DNA of 64,000 nt from Escherichia phage ELT1: sequence record MZ892903.1, one strand, 5' to 3'. The notes beneath the pieces are model-generated. The model made no database searches. It was not told the DNA's origin and worked only from the letters and a program-made list of their open reading frames with translations. This document shows positions 37,866 to 46,663 of this stretch, one piece after another (the stretch's first letter is position 1; the number at the start of each line of letters is the position of its first letter). A program made the position numbers and the translations under genes.

Positions 37866-38956
37866 CGTTATGTTCGATTGAGCTCGCTAATTCTCAACCC
37901 GTTCTCTTATGAACTGCTACATATTACTATGCAGACCAGACTATATCACAATCCCAGAGGGATTCTCCCCATTTCGAGTCGCTTGACCCTACGTCCGAAG
38001 ACTAGTCGTTGAACCTTGCTTTGCAATTGTCGCCGTGCCATCGTTTATATGTTGATGGTGATAAATCTTTCTTATCACAATATGGACAATTCAATTGAAT
38101 TCTATTTGGATTTAATTTACATCTGTCATTATGTTTTAGATAAAATCCAGGACCTTTACCAATGTGACCGCAGAAATCACATGTGATTTCTTTTTGTGCA
38201 GGATGGGTCCCGTTCTTAACCATTTCTAATGTTTTTGCTGATGTTCTTTTCTTATGGTCTTCTGACAAGAAATGATGTGAACCATCATTTACCCGTTTTG
38301 ATTGAGTTTCTGACTGCATTTTACCACCGCAAAATACATGAGTACCTTCTTTTATAGCTGCAATATTGCGTTCTTTAACTTTTGCAATATGCTCAGCTTG
38401 TTGAAAATTATGTATACCTAATGCAACTCTATTTAAATTAGATTTACGCTGTATTTCACCGTCTAAAAGATGAAATGTACCATTTTCTATCTTAGATTTA
38501 ATAGAGGCAATATTTTTAGCTCGTACTTCAGGGATATTAAAAATCTGGATTTCTCTAGATTTTGCAGCTTTAGAAGCTAATTCAGAAATTTCTTCAGGAG
38601 AATATTTCATTCTAAGCTTTATAGCATGACAAGCCTGGTAATCTTTTTGAGCTAAATGTATATCATAATGTTCCTGTATAGAAAGGCACATCAAATTATC
38701 TAAATCATTATTTTCACGGTTACCGTCTTTATGATGGATTTCGTATGTTCTTCCATCAGAATCTTTAGGTATAGGTCCGTTAGCATCTATCCAAATTTTT
38801 CTATAGTTCAATTGTGCATCCTCTTAAAAGTATAATCATATTTATATTATACTAATTAAAGGTGCAAGCAAAACCTTGGCTGCTAGTTTTCCTATAAAGG
38901 ACTTTCCAGCAATTAAAGGAGTTTTCGATAAACGTTACCGTTTAAAGGCGCATTTT
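37866..38956 (-). mobile_element. Group I intron in nrdB (about 1091 nt) carrying an HNH endonuclease ORF
   Basis: Interrupts a conserved NrdB segment; 5' exon ends in U, intron ends in G; intron 5' sequence aaaatgcgccttta; contains ORF 38002..38811. Confidence 0.8.
38002..38811 (-). CDS. I-TevIII: Intron-encoded HNH homing endonuclease (full-length I-TevIII-like)
   Basis: 269-aa ORF; HNH region (YEIHHKDGNRENNDLDNLMCLSIQEHYDIH), repeated DNA-binding modules and C-terminal Cys-x2-Cys...His...Cys fingers. Confidence 0.8.
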   Translation of the reverse strand: MNYRKIWIDANGPIPKDSDGRTYEIHHKDGNRENNDLDNLMCLSIQEHYDIHLAQKDYQACHAIKLRMKYSPEEISELASKAAKSREIQIFNIPEVRAKNIASIKSKIENGTFHLLDGEIQRKSNLNRVALGIHNFQQAEHIAKVKERNIAAIKEGTHVFCGGKMQSETQSKRVNDGSHHFLSEDHKKRTSAKTLEMVKNGTHPAQKEITCDFCGHIGKGPGFYLKHNDRCKLNPNRIQLNCPYCDKKDLSPSTYKRWHGDNCKARFND

Positions 38957-39632
38957 ACGCAAAAGATACATAAAAACGAATAGCTTCTAAGGCATTAATA
39001 ACGTGTAAACAGAGGTAAAGAGACTTCATTAAAGCACGTTTAGCTTCGGCTTCTTGTTTAATAGCTCGGTTTAAACGAAAGTCGGCATCAGGAGATTCTT
39101 TAGCTAGTTCTACAAATTCTTTAGCATTTTCCCATTCACGGGTTTTAACCAAGACATCATCATAATAGCGACCGATAGATTCAGCACGTTTCATGATAGC
39201 TTCATCTAATACAATCTCATCAAATACCTTCGATGGATCAGTATAAAGATTTCGCATGATATGAGTATATGAACGGCTGTGAATAGTTTCACTAAAAGTC
39301 CATGTAGCAACCCATGTATCAAGACTTGGGTCTGAAATTAATGACATAAGTACTGCAGACGGTGCACGACCCTGAATGCTATCTAGAAGTGATTGATACT
39401 TCAGGTTATTAGTAAAAATATCTTGCTGATATTGAGGAAGCTTGTTAAATTGTGCAGCATCCATCATCAAGTTTACTTCTTCAGGACGCCAGAAAAAACT
39501 GATCTGCCGCTCAATGAGTTCTTCAAATACTCGATGTCGTTGAATATCATATCGAGCTAAACCTAATCCAGAACCAAAGAACATCGGTTCATTCAAAACA
39601 TCAACTGGATTTGTATTAAAAACTGTACTCAT
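38957..39632 (-). CDS. nrdB: Ribonucleotide reductase small subunit, exon 1
   Basis: 225 codons plus 1 nt; di-iron ligand region and IRFYVSFA segment conserved with class Ia NrdB. Confidence 0.85.
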
Positions 39633-40327
39633 TTAGAATCCTTAAATTTACATTTATCATAATGCCATCTTAAAGCATTGCCTTTATTAACTTTCTTACC
39701 ACAGTGCGGGCAAGGTGGATACTCTGCTCCTTGTTTAGTTCTCAAAGAAATCAAATCACGGGTTTCTTTAGTATGAGGAACATCTCTTGTCGGAGAAATT
39801 GTACCATACATTGGATTAAGCACGCCGACTTTAGCAGCAGCTATATTCTTTTTAGCTTCTTCAGTTTTAGGCTTTCTCATCTTTTTCTTAGTTTCTTCGC
39901 TTTTAGCCCTTCCTTTGGTTGCCGCCGATATTTTGTGTTTGGTTTCTTCTGTTAAACGCAGACCTGTTTTCGCTTTTGACATTTTCAGTCTCGTTTCTTC
40001 AGAAATGACCGTACCTTTGCGAAATTGTGAATTTAACTTCTTTGCATGGGCATATATCTTAGAATGAACTTTATAATGACGTTTCTTAGTTCCTTTCATA
40101 TTGCACATCATGAAAAATGCGAATATAACAGATTTTACCGGATAAATCTTTGATAAAATAGCATGCGCTATAAAATGTTCTCTGGCTGTTAATTCAACTA
40201 AATTTTCCTTATCATCAGAACCTCCCATACATCTAGGGATTATATGATGTGTCTCTTTATATTCTGATAAAGATTCCCGAGCCTGAGCTCGGGAAATTAG
40301 GTCATTATAGATTTTTTGATAATTCAT
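39629..40327 (-). CDS. mobE: Free-standing HNH endonuclease (mobE-like) between nrdA and nrdB
   Basis: 232-aa ORF; HNH motif (HHIIPRCMGGSDDKENLVELTAREHFIAH), repeated NUMOD3-like ETRxKMSxAK modules, C-terminal CPHCGKK...H..C finger. Confidence 0.75.
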   Translation of the reverse strand: MNYQKIYNDLISRAQARESLSEYKETHHIIPRCMGGSDDKENLVELTAREHFIAHAILSKIYPVKSVIFAFFMMCNMKGTKKRHYKVHSKIYAHAKKLNSQFRKGTVISEETRLKMSKAKTGLRLTEETKHKISAATKGRAKSEETKKKMRKPKTEEAKKNIAAAKVGVLNPMYGTISPTRDVPHTKETRDLISLRTKQGAEYPPCPHCGKKVNKGNALRWHYDKCKFKDSK

Positions 40328-42591
40328 TACAATTTACACGCTGCGCAATCATCGGCTTTTGGAGTTTCTATTTCGTAATCATCAGTACCGGAACCATCAC
40401 GAGTATTATGATAATAGAAGCTTTTAATGCCATAATACCATCCGTATAGCATGTCATCAATCATTACAGACATTGGAACCTTTCCTTTTGGAAAAATCTG
40501 CGGGTCATAATATGTATTCGCTGAAGCTGATTGACATACCCATTTCAGCATAATAGCTACTTGCGTAAGATAAGGTTTATTACCTTTTTTAGCTAATTTC
40601 CACGTATAATCATACAGGTCTATGTTATGCTCAATATTGGGCACGACTTGATTAAAGGAGCCCTCTTTTGATTCTTTAACAGAGACTGGTCCACGTGGAG
40701 GCTCGATACCGTTTGTACTGTTAGAAACTTGGGAAGATGACTCACATGGCATAAGTGCTGATAATGTGCTATTACGGATGCCAAAGAGCTTAAGGTCTTC
40801 CCGCAGCGACGACCAGTCACAAACGTATTTTGGAGCTGCGATTTGGTCAATCTTTTTATTGTACCAGTCGATAGGTAATTCGCCTCGAGACCAACGAGTG
40901 TCTGAATAATATTCGCAAGGTCCTTTTTCTTTGGCGAGCTTAATGGATGCTTTAATGAGTCCATACTGTAATCTCTCAAATAGTTCATGTGTTAAATCGT
41001 TAGCATCTTCATAAGAAGCAAAATTACTTGCCAGCCAAGCTGCATAGTTAGTAACACCTACGCCAAGGTTTCGACGCTTTTTAGCTTTTTCTGCTTCAGG
41101 AACTGGATATCCTTGGTAGTCCAAAAGATTATCAAGAGCACGAACTTGGACTTCTGCCAATTCATTAATTTTATCTTGGTCTTGCCAATCGAAGTTATCC
41201 AACACAAATGCGCTAAGGGTACACAATCCAATTTCAGCATCAGGGCTATTCACATCATTTGTTGGAATAGCAATTTCACAGCACAAGTTACTCTGACGAA
41301 TAGGTGCCTTTTCACGAATAAACGGAGTATAGTTATTCGTATTATCAATGAACTGTACATAAATCCTTGCTGTTCCTGATCGTTCAGTCATGAGCAATTC
41401 AAATAGTTCACGGGCTTTAATACGCTTTTTACGAATATTAGGATCTTTTTCTGCTGCTTCGTATAATTCACGGAAACGGTCTTGGTCTTTAAAATAAGAA
41501 TAATAAAGTTCGCCACCCATTTCATGTGGACTAAACAAAGTAATGTAATCGTTCTTTCCAAAACGTTCCATCATCAAATCATTCAGTTGAACGCCATAAT
41601 CCATATGACGGATACGGTTTTCTTCTACGCCTTTGTTATTTTTCAAAACGAGAAGATTTTCAACTTCCAAATGCCAAATAGGATAATAAGCAGTAGCAGC
41701 GCCGCCACGAATTCCACCCTGTGAGCATGATTTAACAGCAGTCTGAAAATGTTTCCAAAAAGGAATAACACCAGTATGGCGTACTTCACCCATGCCAATC
41801 TTAGAACCTTCGGCACGAATCATACCAACGTTAATACCAATTCCAGCGCGTTTGGAGATATATTCAACAATTGAAGCGGAAGCCTTATTGATAGACTTTA
41901 ATGAATCACCTGCCTCAATAACAACGCATGAACTAAACTGTCGAGTCGGAGTACGACAGCCAGCCATAATAGGAGTTGGCAATGAAATCTGTCGAGTAGA
42001 TACTGCTTCATAAAAACGAATAACATGTTTTAATCTATCAACAGGTTCATCTTGATGCAATGCCATTCCAATAGTCATAAATGCAAACTGTGGAGTTTCA
42101 TAAATTTGACCAGTGGTTTTATCTTTAACTAGATATTTTTCTTTTAATTGCATCGCCCCGGAATAAGTAAATTCCATATCCCGCTCGTGCTTAATTTTTG
42201 ATTCTAAAAATGTAATTTCTTCTGCTGAATATTTTGACAGCAGTTCAGGGTCATATTTACCTTCATTTACACAGTAAGAAATATGGTCAATAAATGAACG
42301 TGGTTCATACTGCCCATAAACATGCTTACGAAGAGCGAACATTAAACAGCGAGCGGCTACATATTGGTAATCAGGCTCTTCAACCGAAATAGAATTCGCA
42401 GCAGCCTTAATGACAATAGTCTGAATATCATCAGTTGTCATTCCATCACGGAGATAAGATTTAATATTTTCATATAATTCATAAGGATCTACTGATGTTC
42501 CTTCAGCTGCCCAAGATAAAACTTTAATAATTTTTTGCGGGTCAAAGCTCTGAGAAACACCACTACTTTTGATAACATTAATTAATTGCAT
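40327..42591 (-). CDS. nrdA: Ribonucleotide reductase large subunit
   Basis: 754-aa ORF; catalytic NxCxE (SNLCCEI) region; length matches T4 NrdA. Confidence 0.95.
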   Translation of the reverse strand: MQLINVIKSSGVSQSFDPQKIIKVLSWAAEGTSVDPYELYENIKSYLRDGMTTDDIQTIVIKAAANSISVEEPDYQYVAARCLMFALRKHVYGQYEPRSFIDHISYCVNEGKYDPELLSKYSAEEITFLESKIKHERDMEFTYSGAMQLKEKYLVKDKTTGQIYETPQFAFMTIGMALHQDEPVDRLKHVIRFYEAVSTRQISLPTPIMAGCRTPTRQFSSCVVIEAGDSLKSINKASASIVEYISKRAGIGINVGMIRAEGSKIGMGEVRHTGVIPFWKHFQTAVKSCSQGGIRGGAATAYYPIWHLEVENLLVLKNNKGVEENRIRHMDYGVQLNDLMMERFGKNDYITLFSPHEMGGELYYSYFKDQDRFRELYEAAEKDPNIRKKRIKARELFELLMTERSGTARIYVQFIDNTNNYTPFIREKAPIRQSNLCCEIAIPTNDVNSPDAEIGLCTLSAFVLDNFDWQDQDKINELAEVQVRALDNLLDYQGYPVPEAEKAKKRRNLGVGVTNYAAWLASNFASYEDANDLTHELFERLQYGLIKASIKLAKEKGPCEYYSDTRWSRGELPIDWYNKKIDQIAAPKYVCDWSSLREDLKLFGIRNSTLSALMPCESSSQVSNSTNGIEPPRGPVSVKESKEGSFNQVVPNIEHNIDLYDYTWKLAKKGNKPYLTQVAIMLKWVCQSASANTYYDPQIFPKGKVPMSVMIDDMLYGWYYGIKSFYYHNTRDGSGTDDYEIETPKADDCAACKL

Positions 42592-42815
42592 AAGTCCTCA
42601 ACTTGAAAATCGTCTTTAAACAGTCGGTTAACTATATGAGCTATTATATCACCATGACACGGCTTTGGTTTACATGTGCATCCTAGCCTCATTCCACGTA
42701 AAGGCTCTAAATGTGCTTTAGTTATTTCTCCGGATTTAATTCGACGTATAAAATCTTTTTTGAATAATTCAATGGCAGCCTCCCGGCTGCCAGCATCTTT
42801 ACCGACGTAAAGGCT
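42582..42815 (-). pseudogene. ATG-less reading frame with Cys-x-Cys...Cys-His motif; likely distal part of a frame-disrupted small gene
   Basis: 77 sense codons ...[56 protein letters not shown]... with no ATG/GTG/TTG until an internal Met; stop overlaps nrdA ATG. Confidence 0.35.
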
Positions 42816-42907
42816 CTAAATGTACCACGGTGAATATTAACATCAAAGTCGGATTTGTATTTATTCACTACCTGACATAGACGGCCCGCGCGGTAATAAT
42901 TCGTCAT
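42722..42907 (-). CDS. Hypothetical protein; possible N-terminal part of the frame-disrupted gene
   Basis: 61-aa ORF ending 93 nt inside the region also covered by the ATG-less frame. Confidence 0.4.
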
Positions 42908-43136
42908 ATTGTTGTTCCGTTAAAACAGTAATATCATAGTAACAATCTGAAGAAGTTTTAACTGTAGAAATTTTATTATCAAAATACTCACGAGTCATTT
43001 TATGAGTATAATATTTTTTGCCATAAATGATAATAGGCTGATTTGGTCCTGGAACTTCTAACTCACTTGGATTAGGAAGTGTAAAAAGAACTACACCAGA
43101 AGTATCTTTAAATCGTAAAATCATATATCCTCGCAA
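42861..43136 (-). CDS. Hypothetical protein
   Basis: 91-aa ORF directly downstream of td exon 2. Confidence 0.5.
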
Positions 43137-43147
43137 TTAAATTAAAA

Positions 43148-43459
43148 TTACACCGCCATTTTTCCTTTCAAGACACCGTGGGATTGATAATCTTTGAGAA
43201 CGAAATCTTTAGGCCTGAGTTTAAGAATGTATTCCAATTGTTCTTTAGTAGAAAGATAGCGGAATTTATAAGGCAATCCGCCTATTACCAGTTCACATAG
43301 TTCTTTAGGCTCACGACGCAAAATTTCTTTACATTGTTCTACGTGATTCATATAGATATGAGTATTACCACCAGAAAATATCAAATCTCCTGGAATAAGA
43401 TTACACATCTTAGCTACAATATGAACTAACGCAGCATATGATGCAATGTTGAACGGTAG
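43148..43459 (-). CDS. td: Thymidylate synthase, exon 2
   Basis: Begins LPFNIASYA...; exon junction ...ttcttgggt|ctaccgttc... matches the T4 td splice context as recalled. Confidence 0.9.
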   Translation of the reverse strand, partial: LPFNIASYAALVHIVAKMCNLIPGDLIFSGGNTHIYMNHVEQCKEILRREPKELCELVIGGLPYKFRYLSTKEQLEYILKLRPKDFVLKDYQSHGVLKGKMAV

Positions 43460-44475
43460 CATTATGTTCAGATAAGGTCGTTAATCTTACCCCGGAATTA
43501 TATCCAGCTGCATGTCACCATGCAGATCAGACTATATCTCCAACTTGTTAAAGCAAGTTGTCTATCGTTTCGAGTCACTTGACCCTACTCCCCAAAGGGA
43601 TAGTCGTTAGGCATTTATGTAGAACCAATTCCATTTATCAGATTTTACACGATAAGTAACTAATCCAGACGAAATTTTAAAATGTCTAGCTGCATCTGCT
43701 GCACAATCAAAAATAACCCCATCACATGAAATCTTTTTAATATTACTAGGCTTTTTACCTTTCATCTTTTCTGATATTTTAGATTTAGTTATGTCTGAAT
43801 GCTTATGATTAAAGAATGAATTATTTTCACCTGAACGATTTCTGCATTTACTACAAGTATAAGCAGAAGTTTGTATGCGAACACCGCACTTACAAAACTT
43901 ATGGGTTTCTGGATTCCAACGCCCGTTTTTACTTCCGGGTTTACTGTAAAGAGCTTTCCGACCATCAGGTCCAAGTTTAAGCATCTTAGCTTTAACAGTT
44001 TCAGAACGTTTCTTAATAATTTCTTCTTTTAATGGATGCGTAGAACATGTATCACCAAACGTTGCATCAGCAATATTGTATCCATTAATTTTAGAATTAA
44101 GCTCTTTAATCCAAAAATTTTCTCGTTCAATAATCAAATCTTTCTCATATGGAATTTCTTCCAAAATAGAACATTCAAACACATTACCATGTTTGTTAAA
44201 AGACCTCTGAAGCTTTATAGAAGAATGGCATCCTTTTTCTAAATCTTTAAAATGCCTCTTCCATCTCTTTTCAAAATCTTTAGCACTTCCTACATATACT
44301 TTATTGTTTAAAGTATTTTTAATCTGATAAATTCCGCTTTTCATAAATACCTCTTTAAATATAGAAGTATTTATTAAAGGGCAGTCCTACAATTTAGCAC
44401 GGGATTGTCTACTAGAGAGGTTCCCCGTTTAGATAGATTACAAGTATAAGTCACCTTATACTCAGGCCTCAATTA
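43460..44475 (-). mobile_element. Group I intron in td (1016 nt) carrying I-TevI
   Basis: Intron starts taattgaggcctgagtataaggtgac..., ends ...ataatg; length 1016 nt equals the T4 td intron. Confidence 0.9.
43607..44344 (-). CDS. I-TevI: Intron-encoded GIY-YIG homing endonuclease I-TevI
   Basis: 245-aa ORF; N-terminal GIY-YIG (MKSGIYQIKNTLNNKVYVGSA), zinc finger CKCGVRIQTSAYTCSKC, C-terminal DNA-binding region. Confidence 0.92.
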   Translation of the reverse strand: MKSGIYQIKNTLNNKVYVGSAKDFEKRWKRHFKDLEKGCHSSIKLQRSFNKHGNVFECSILEEIPYEKDLIIERENFWIKELNSKINGYNIADATFGDTCSTHPLKEEIIKKRSETVKAKMLKLGPDGRKALYSKPGSKNGRWNPETHKFCKCGVRIQTSAYTCSKCRNRSGENNSFFNHKHSDITKSKISEKMKGKKPSNIKKISCDGVIFDCAADAARHFKISSGLVTYRVKSDKWNWFYINA

Positions 44476-45023
44476 ACCCAAGAAAACATCTACTGATCGT
44501 TGATACCACTGCAAATCCAAATATCCATTACGCACATTAAACTGATAAAACATATGACAAGGCGGTAATGACATATATTTAAGTTCAGCTGGATTCCACG
44601 CAGAAACAATTTGACGCCTATCATTCGGCAGTTTTTTAATACGATCAACAACTTCTACAATTTGGTCTACACCGCCAAAATCACGCCATTGTTTTCCATA
44701 AATTGGACCAAGTTCACCGCTATGGTATCCTAAATCTTTTGCTTGATTTTCGTAATTTTCATCCCAGACTGTTTTGCCTTGAATTAATGAATCATGCTGA
44801 ATTAATCGCAAATCATTGACATTTGTGCTTCCCGATAAAAACCATATTAGCTCAGCAATGCAAGCTTTCCAGGCGAGCTTCTTAGTCGTTACTGCAGGAA
44901 AACCTTTAGTTAAATCCCAGCGTAATTTAGTACCGAACAAAGCAATTGTTCCTGTGCCTGTTCGGTCATCGGTTTCATAACCGTTTTCCAGGATATCTTT
45001 AATTAAAAATTGGTATTGTTTCA

Positions 45024-45024
<1 letters not shown>
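44476..45024 (-). CDS. td: Thymidylate synthase, exon 1
   Basis: Starts MKQYQFLIKDILENGYETDDRTGTGT (T4 TS N-terminus as recalled); 183 codons; exon 1 plus exon 2 = 286 aa. Confidence 0.9.
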
Positions 45025-46056
<1,032 letters not shown>

Positions 46057-46066
46057 ATTATTTTCC

Positions 46067-46309
46067 TTAAACAGACTTTTTCACAATTTTCCAATCAGCT
46101 TTAAACTGTTCAACGTCAGAATGGTAAATCCAGAATCCTGCGCTTTCTCCGTCTTCATAAAGAGGACATCCATCGCATTCATCTTCCCATCCCATATCAC
46201 GTAAAAGATGTTCAGCTTTTTCAACAAGTTCAGAATCTTTACCGATGATATTAAAATACCATTTACCTCTAACTTCTGAATCTTTGATGCTCTGGCGTTG
46301 TAATCTCAT
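46067..46309 (-). CDS. Hypothetical protein
   Basis: 80-aa ORF. Confidence 0.5.
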   Translation of the reverse strand: MRLQRQSIKDSEVRGKWYFNIIGKDSELVEKAEHLLRDMGWEDECDGCPLYEDGESAGFWIYHSDVEQFKADWKIVKKSV

Positions 46310-46369
46310 TTTATTCTCCTCAGTAGTTGATAGGGTAATAGTATCACACTACTACCCTGCTGTAAACAA

Positions 46370-46663
46370 TTATTTTTGAATTTTATCGAGCCACTTACCA
46401 AGCTTAATCATTTCTTTAGTAGCCTTTTCCATACTTCTGAACTTAACCAATAGAGGATAGGTATCGACACCCATAACTAAACTGGTTACAAGACTGTGTT
46501 CACCCACAAGCCATAACGAATACGTTTGAATATCGAGTCCGTAATTTCTGTCTTTATGGACCCGTACACCCATCACTTCAAATTTCTCACTAGCTTTTTC
46601 TACCGCATCCAGGAAATCATCTTTAGTCATATTAGGCCTTAAAAGTTTTTCGCAAAAGTTCAA
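46370..46663 (-). CDS. Hypothetical protein (start uncertain)
   Basis: 97-aa ORF overlapping upstream ORF by 32 nt; an internal Met may be the true start. Confidence 0.45.
   Translation of the reverse strand: MNFCEKLLRPNMTKDDFLDAVEKASEKFEVMGVRVHKDRNYGLDIQTYSLWLVGEHSLVTSLVMGVDTYPLLVKFRSMEKATKEMIKLGKWLDKIQK

Follow-up and report, generated by a model that had tools for sequence, protein, structure and literature searches.

Laboratory work on bacteriophage T4 has described templated mutations, which arise when the polymerase takes an imperfect repeat as its template before it returns (Schultz, Carver and Drake 2006, J Mol Biol 358:963, via PMC3016281). As far as the account in PMC3016281 goes, such mutations are site-specific and repeatable, and they are commoner with certain alleles of genes 32, 41 and uvsX (Schultz, Carver and Drake 2006, via PMC3016281). 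The T4 examples are laboratory mutants selected in reporter genes, whereas the change described here is a natural allele found in wild lineages. It lies in gene nrdA.1 of Escherichia phage ELT1 (MZ892903.1), within a stretch of 64,000 nucleotides (nt) that we call the window; all coordinates count from its first letter. A preliminary description had seen at this place a small Cys/His-motif gene split across two frames, which was taken either for one ancestral gene disrupted by a small duplication or indel, or for a gene needing a translational frameshift. Our comparison with related phages indicates that a single templated mutation very probably made nrdA.1 a pseudogene.

The gene order in the window, all on the minus strand, is frd, td (interrupted), nrdA.2, the nrdA.1 locus, nrdA, an HNH endonuclease gene and nrdB, and the same arrangement is annotated in phage T4. 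The preliminary description needs one correction here, since the interval from td exon 2 to nrdA contains nrdA.2 as well. The locus occupies the position of T4 nrdA.1 between nrdA.2 and nrdA, with identical overlaps, and from its sequence it is assigned to nrdA.1 of a T4-like phage (Tequatrovirus). The orthologue in T4 (NP_049846), AR1, Shfl2, RB3 and others is intact, 327 nt long, and codes for a DUF4326 protein of 108 amino acids (aa); an intact 327-nt gene is also present in EcNP1, Shinka and Nami. In contrast to T4 nrdA.1, the window copy is frameshifted, lacks a W-G-N motif, and is split into a 61-aa open reading frame (ORF1) and a start-less frame. A megablast search with the region matched 511 T4-like phage records, nearly all of them 95-99% identical, and the nearest relative of the window over 14 kb is HY03 (96.6%).

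The alignment with T4, AR1, Shfl2, RB3 and others showed that the differences at the break all fall within 42811-42817. The relatives read ACATTT-TGGGGAAA-TTACGT at this place and the window reads ACATTT-AGAGCCT-TTACGT, which amounts to five substitutions and the loss of 1 nt within 7-8 nt. When the ancestral 8 nt were put back, a 108-aa ORF was restored, in which 104 of the 108 residues are identical to T4 NrdA.1. The changed site, R1, is now identical at 19/19 nt to a second site, R2, located 109 nt downstream in the same gene. The ancestral R1 and R2 form an imperfect direct repeat with 14/20 matching positions and perfect 6-nt flanks, ACATTT and TTACGT. R2 is unchanged in all 10 loci in which both sites were located, carriers and non-carriers of the change alike. 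No intermediate alleles were seen among the aligned phages.

As a result, the window contains a 19-base-pair (bp) exact direct repeat, ACGTAAAGGCTCTAAATGT (minus-strand form ACATTTAGAGCCTTTACGT), with a spacing of 109 nt. Its upstream copy is read as T-F-R-A-F-T in the frame of ORF1 and its downstream copy as H-L-E-P-L-R in the second frame. A search of the 64-kb window allowing up to 3 mismatches found no third copy of the 19-mer. Its chance expectation is 0.03, and two or more matches occurred in 0/100 shuffles, which excludes chance recurrence. The five base changes, the 1-nt loss, the frameshift, a new TAG stop, the loss of W-G-N and the 19-bp repeat are all accounted for by a single 8-to-7-nt replacement copied from R2. 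The idea of one disrupted ancestral gene therefore stands, with the repeat as the footprint of the event; the proposed duplication or simple indel gives way to the replacement. An inverted-repeat (quasi-palindrome) template was also considered and was rejected, since no inverted repeat involves the patch. At two perfect 19-bp repeats, slippage would be expected to delete 109 bp particularly often. When such a deletion allele was sought in the phage collection, only the 7 carrier records of the patch matched, via joined pieces, so the collection contains no deletion allele.

Table 1. Features of the nrdA.1 locus and adjoining genes in the window.
Feature	Position	Strand	Description	Basis
Putative nrdA.1 pseudogene	42582..42907	minus	326 nt	T4 annotation and alignments
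ORF1	42722..42907	minus	61 aa, ATG start, TAA end; N-terminal 30 residues native NrdA.1, then 31 out-of-frame	
Start-less downstream frame	42582..42815	minus	77 sense codons; native NrdA.1 residues 34-108 with the C-x-C-x-P-x2-C-H-G-D block	
Recipient site R1	42805..42823	minus	now ACATTTAGAGCCTTTACGT; relatives have the 20-mer ACATTTTGGGGAAATTACGT, read T-F-W-G-N-Y-V	
Donor site R2	42696..42714	minus	ACATTTAGAGCCTTTACGT, read H-L-E-P-L-R; invariant	
Minimal converted core	42811..42817	minus	AGAGCCT (7 nt) replacing TGGGGAAA (8 nt)	single-nucleotide polymorphism table and alignments
TAG stop from the patch	42816..42818	minus	in the native C-terminal frame	three-frame translation
A_AAA_AAG heptamer	42755..42761	minus	run tcA AAA AAG; in phase with ORF1, offset mod 3 = 2 from the ATG	
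Linked synonymous variant	42857	minus	TAC vs TAT, Tyr17	in 5/5 carriers, 0/6 aligned non-carriers
nrdA	40327..42591	minus	754 aa; ATG overlaps the nrdA.1 stop	
nrdA.2 (DUF5496)	42861..43124	minus	overlaps the first 47 nt of nrdA.1, same in T4	

The coding content of the two frames agrees with this disruption (Table 1). ORF1 gave no Pfam match, and PHROG 464 matches it at residues 1-30 only. In the downstream frame the sole ATG, GTG or TTG start is an internal Met at 42692, and its stop overlaps the nrdA ATG (42591) by 10 nt inside ATGCAATTAA. Both frames, this overlap and the repeat read in two frames had been described correctly before. The downstream frame contains the C-x-C-x-P-x2-C-H-G-D block, GCTCKPKPCHGD, and matches Pfam PF14216 (DUF4326) at profile positions 27-81 of 82 with E = 5.3e-15 and 56.3 bits, above the gathering cut-off of 25 bits. 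This bears out the earlier guess that the motif was DUF4326-like. For comparison, intact T4 NrdA.1 matches the same profile at positions 1-81 with E = 5.5e-22 and 78.7 bits. In the window the domain is not contained in one translatable ORF; it is spread over two frames, with no start before Met 42692. A sequence search of the PDB with the restored protein yielded nothing below E = 0.7.

The replaced codons were then compared within the family. W31-G32-N33 (T4 numbering) is not encoded in any frame of the window, which reads F-R-A-F and I-stop-S-L instead. G32 and N33 do not vary among 46 T4-like homologues, more than 90% of which have W31. Of 1.8 billion representative proteins searched with a profile, 5039 were family members at E <= 0.001, and 85 diverse short representatives served for the motif counts. 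N33 was found in 85/85 of them, G32 in 82/85, and W, F or Y at position 31 in 84/85. The conservation is of the same degree as that of the Cys/His block, with C77, C79 and C84 each in 85/85 and H85 in 84/85. The replaced codons encode the most conserved N-terminal motif of the DUF4326 family. The family is placed in the rhodanese-phosphatase clade as a predicted phosphatase of ADP-ribose derivatives (Iyer, Burroughs, Aravind et al., Viruses 2022, PMC9503650). Fusions of DUF4326 to Macro, NADAR and SLOG domains are frequent, and a role in phage-host conflict is predicted for the family, in which it would process the terminal phosphates of ADP-ribose derivatives (PMC9503650, PMC7824862). The window locus shares with these predicted phosphatases the Pfam family and the conserved Cys-containing block. 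A literature search on nrdA.1 returned two incidental mentions only, and one on the rhodanese-phosphatase superfamily and DUF488 returned nothing relevant. Because the invariant motif is replaced and the frame is broken, we infer that the window nrdA.1 has lost its function and is an ordinary pseudogene.

To find the derived allele in other phages we used a 55-nt probe centred on the patch. It was present in 7 records, which represent four phages besides the window: HY03, SG1, pSe_SNUABM_01 and JEP6. The ancestral patch occurs in about 483 records. An 88-nt probe with the ancestral patch, designed for the progenitor, gave 7 matches at 90-95% identity, which were taken as the 7 carrier records since the counts agree. 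According to the preliminary description, relatives with the same two ORFs and proper starts would speak against its reading. The four phages do show the split, but a proper start of the second frame is lacking and the great majority of records have a single ORF. An exact-pattern scan for the derived junction found none in IMG/VR viral contigs or in JGI metagenome contigs; the ancestral junction occurs in only 5 IMG/VR contigs, so these scans say little about the frequency of the allele.

The recurrence of the patch also bears on whether an intact gene could have been misread. The net change is one base, next to runs of T and G. An error of sequencing or assembly, for example a miscounted homopolymer, could leave such a change, and re-sequencing had been proposed for this reason. 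Such an artefact would have to make five substitutions and one deletion that exactly reproduce nearby sequence, and to do so again in four other independently deposited genomes. One of these, JEP6, has a further C-to-T change inside the patch. An allele shared by five independently sequenced phages, one of them with a later single-nucleotide change, is real and heritable. The artefact explanation is thus almost certainly wrong and is effectively refuted by this recurrence.

The second frame could still be expressed if ribosomes translating ORF1 slipped by -1 on the heptamer A_AAA_AAG to give a 108-aa fusion with the Cys/His block. A_AAA_AAG is the classic slippery heptamer of E. coli. Here it lies inside the overlap of the two frames, and a -1 slip on it enters exactly the downstream frame. 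The locus therefore resembles the dnaX-type -1 frameshift in having the identical heptamer in the correct phase, joining two overlapping frames. It differs in that a stimulatory hairpin is absent, the arrangement is not conserved, and the product would be devoid of the invariant motif. The 85 nt downstream of the heptamer have a folding energy of -11.7 kcal/mol, and the mean of shuffled sequences is -12.2 (z = 0.18), which indicates no stimulatory structure. The only Shine-Dalgarno-like element, GGGAGG, is situated 17 nt upstream of the heptamer, and in the dnaX case such a distance exceeds the spacing at which a Shine-Dalgarno element is stimulatory. The heptamer came into phase as a side effect of losing 1 nt upstream, and the intact genes read F-K-K-D there. 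In the fusion, native residues 31-49, and with them the invariant G-N, would be replaced by 19 out-of-frame residues, and the patch itself placed a TAG in the downstream frame. Moreover, the split is found in the 7 carrier records, as opposed to a single ORF in the roughly 483 with the ancestral patch. Slippage of some degree may take place at this site, but we judge the heptamer to be incidental, and programmed frameshifting, the other option of the preliminary description, is very unlikely.

Another possibility is that the event created two functional small genes, ORF1 with a new function and/or a 36-aa peptide from the internal Met (42692..42582). ORF1 has retained the original start codon, the HY03 record lists it as a 61-aa coding sequence (HY03_0257), and the remaining sequence is almost unchanged in comparison with intact alleles. 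Near-identity is, however, expected for a recent event, and the relatives are all 97-98% identical in this region. The last 31 residues of ORF1 are out-of-frame and match no family, and no convincing Shine-Dalgarno sequence precedes the internal ATG. New genes of this kind are accordingly most improbable.

The pseudogene is best explained by a templated mutation of the following course. During DNA synthesis, the nascent strand would pair at the wrong copy through one 6-nt flank, copy the 7-nt core of R2, and return via the other 6-nt flank. R1 has become an exact copy of R2, which created the 19-bp repeat. Translation from the native ATG now ends after 61 aa, of which 31 are out-of-frame, and the two-thirds of the gene that carry the Cys/His block are left start-less. 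Gene nrdA downstream retains its own ribosome-binding site, a GAGGA Shine-Dalgarno sequence 4 nt upstream of it. The replacement is observed in the alignments, and we infer the strand-switch route from its product. The allele shares with the T4 templated mutations a one-step cluster of substitutions with an indel that is exactly predicted by a nearby imperfect repeat, an unchanged donor, microhomology on both sides of the copied core, and the same virus group. Unlike in the laboratory T4 cases, the donor here is a direct repeat in the gene itself, at a distance of 109 nt. Related work on rII was reportedly done in the Ripley laboratory.

Several points weigh against this interpretation. Either a strand switch at replication or short-patch conversion in a misaligned recombination intermediate could have left this sequence. 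The loss of function is deduced from motif and frame, for a gene whose activity is itself predicted. The rest of nrdA.1 is nearly identical to intact alleles, which fits a recent event and would also fit residual constraint. Finally, the carriers fall into two haplotypes upstream of about 42873, as might be the case if the same templated change had arisen more than once independently; a templated change is deterministic, and the mechanism would always give the same product. The five carriers nevertheless have in common the minority C at 42857, 34 nt from the patch, and no more than about 50 of the 483 records combine this C with the ancestral patch. This putative progenitor haplotype was represented by 50 records at >=99% identity over 88 nt, for example RB18. 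T-even phages recombine freely, and one origin followed by flanking exchange is for this reason simpler than recurrence. Consequently, we consider recurrent origin unlikely. The simplest reading is that the allele probably arose once on the minority haplotype and then recombined into at least two flanking haplotypes.

The templated patch is not the only disrupted form of nrdA.1. The homologue search returned odd 87-aa proteins, and alignment of the DNA, including that of the isolate G2540-3, revealed three more independent frameshifts in the gene. G2540-3 has lost one G from a run of four (G4 to G3) that belongs to the W-G-N codons. In five metagenomic contigs (Logan/ENA) a run of six A in a Lys-Lys run has grown to seven (A6 to A7), and in four others (Logan/ENA) GGGAGG has become GGGAGGG. 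Gene callers report 87-aa chimeric proteins from an out-of-frame ATG in these frameshifted alleles. The homopolymer alleles could include assembly errors, but both metagenomic ones turned up repeatedly, in separate samples. A megablast search with the A7 query gave no match, which says nothing about the allele, since the A run is masked as low-complexity sequence and cannot seed an alignment; the same search with the GGGAGGG query found no isolate record with the exact allele. With the templated patch, there are at least four independent frameshift alleles, and such recurrent natural loss suggests that nrdA.1 is dispensable in many hosts. That the loss is adaptive and not neutral is a doubtful proposition, with a low probability in our estimate. 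If it were true, the DUF4326 protein would be costly or sensed by host defence in some hosts, and would be repeatedly discarded.

Among the neighbouring genes, a single 232-aa HNH homing-endonuclease ORF is located between nrdA and nrdB (39629..40327, minus strand). Its residues 1-119 are 97% identical to T4 MobE (141 aa), and its residues 150-232 are 100% identical to T4 NrdB.1 (83 aa). From this comparison, T4 mobE and nrdB.1 look like the split version of a gene that is intact in the window, the reverse of the nrdA.1 case. The td intron (43463..44472, minus strand) contains a 245-aa ORF (43607..44344) identical in position and size to T4 I-TevI. A scan of 38000-46500 with Rfam at gathering thresholds detected nothing, including the td group I intron; we presume that the ORF inserted in the intron defeats the Rfam model. 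Promoters and terminators were sought in 42300-43500, and nothing rose above shuffle expectation.

Annotations of the region in related phages are partly in error. Some GenBank product names in HY03 (KR269718) are clearly mistaken. The label given to nrdA is 'putative capsid vertex' and that given to nrdA.2 is 'putative prohead core scaffold protein', while the ORF in the place of I-TevI bears the name 'putative prohead core protein'. HMD-9 and WL-3 have the same 'prohead core scaffold' label over nrdA.2/nrdA.1. In EcNP1, Shinka and Nami, the nrdA.1 interval is unannotated despite an intact 108-aa ORF in all three, so a missing coding-sequence annotation is no evidence of disruption.

These results resolve the odd two-frame gene as an nrdA.1 pseudogene, and it should be annotated as disrupted nrdA.1. 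A call of a 61-aa hypothetical protein, as in HY03, or a blank stretch, as in SG1, JEP6 and pSe_SNUABM_01, is to be avoided. The patch adds a new case from nature to a mutational mechanism already known, in an accessory gene that is known as well; as far as we found, it is a clean natural example of a class otherwise described from laboratory T4 genetics. Templated events of this kind inflate apparent substitution counts and can mislead phylogenies. A dispensable nrdA.1 would also provide a context for tests of the role of DUF4326 in ADP-ribose-based phage-host conflict.

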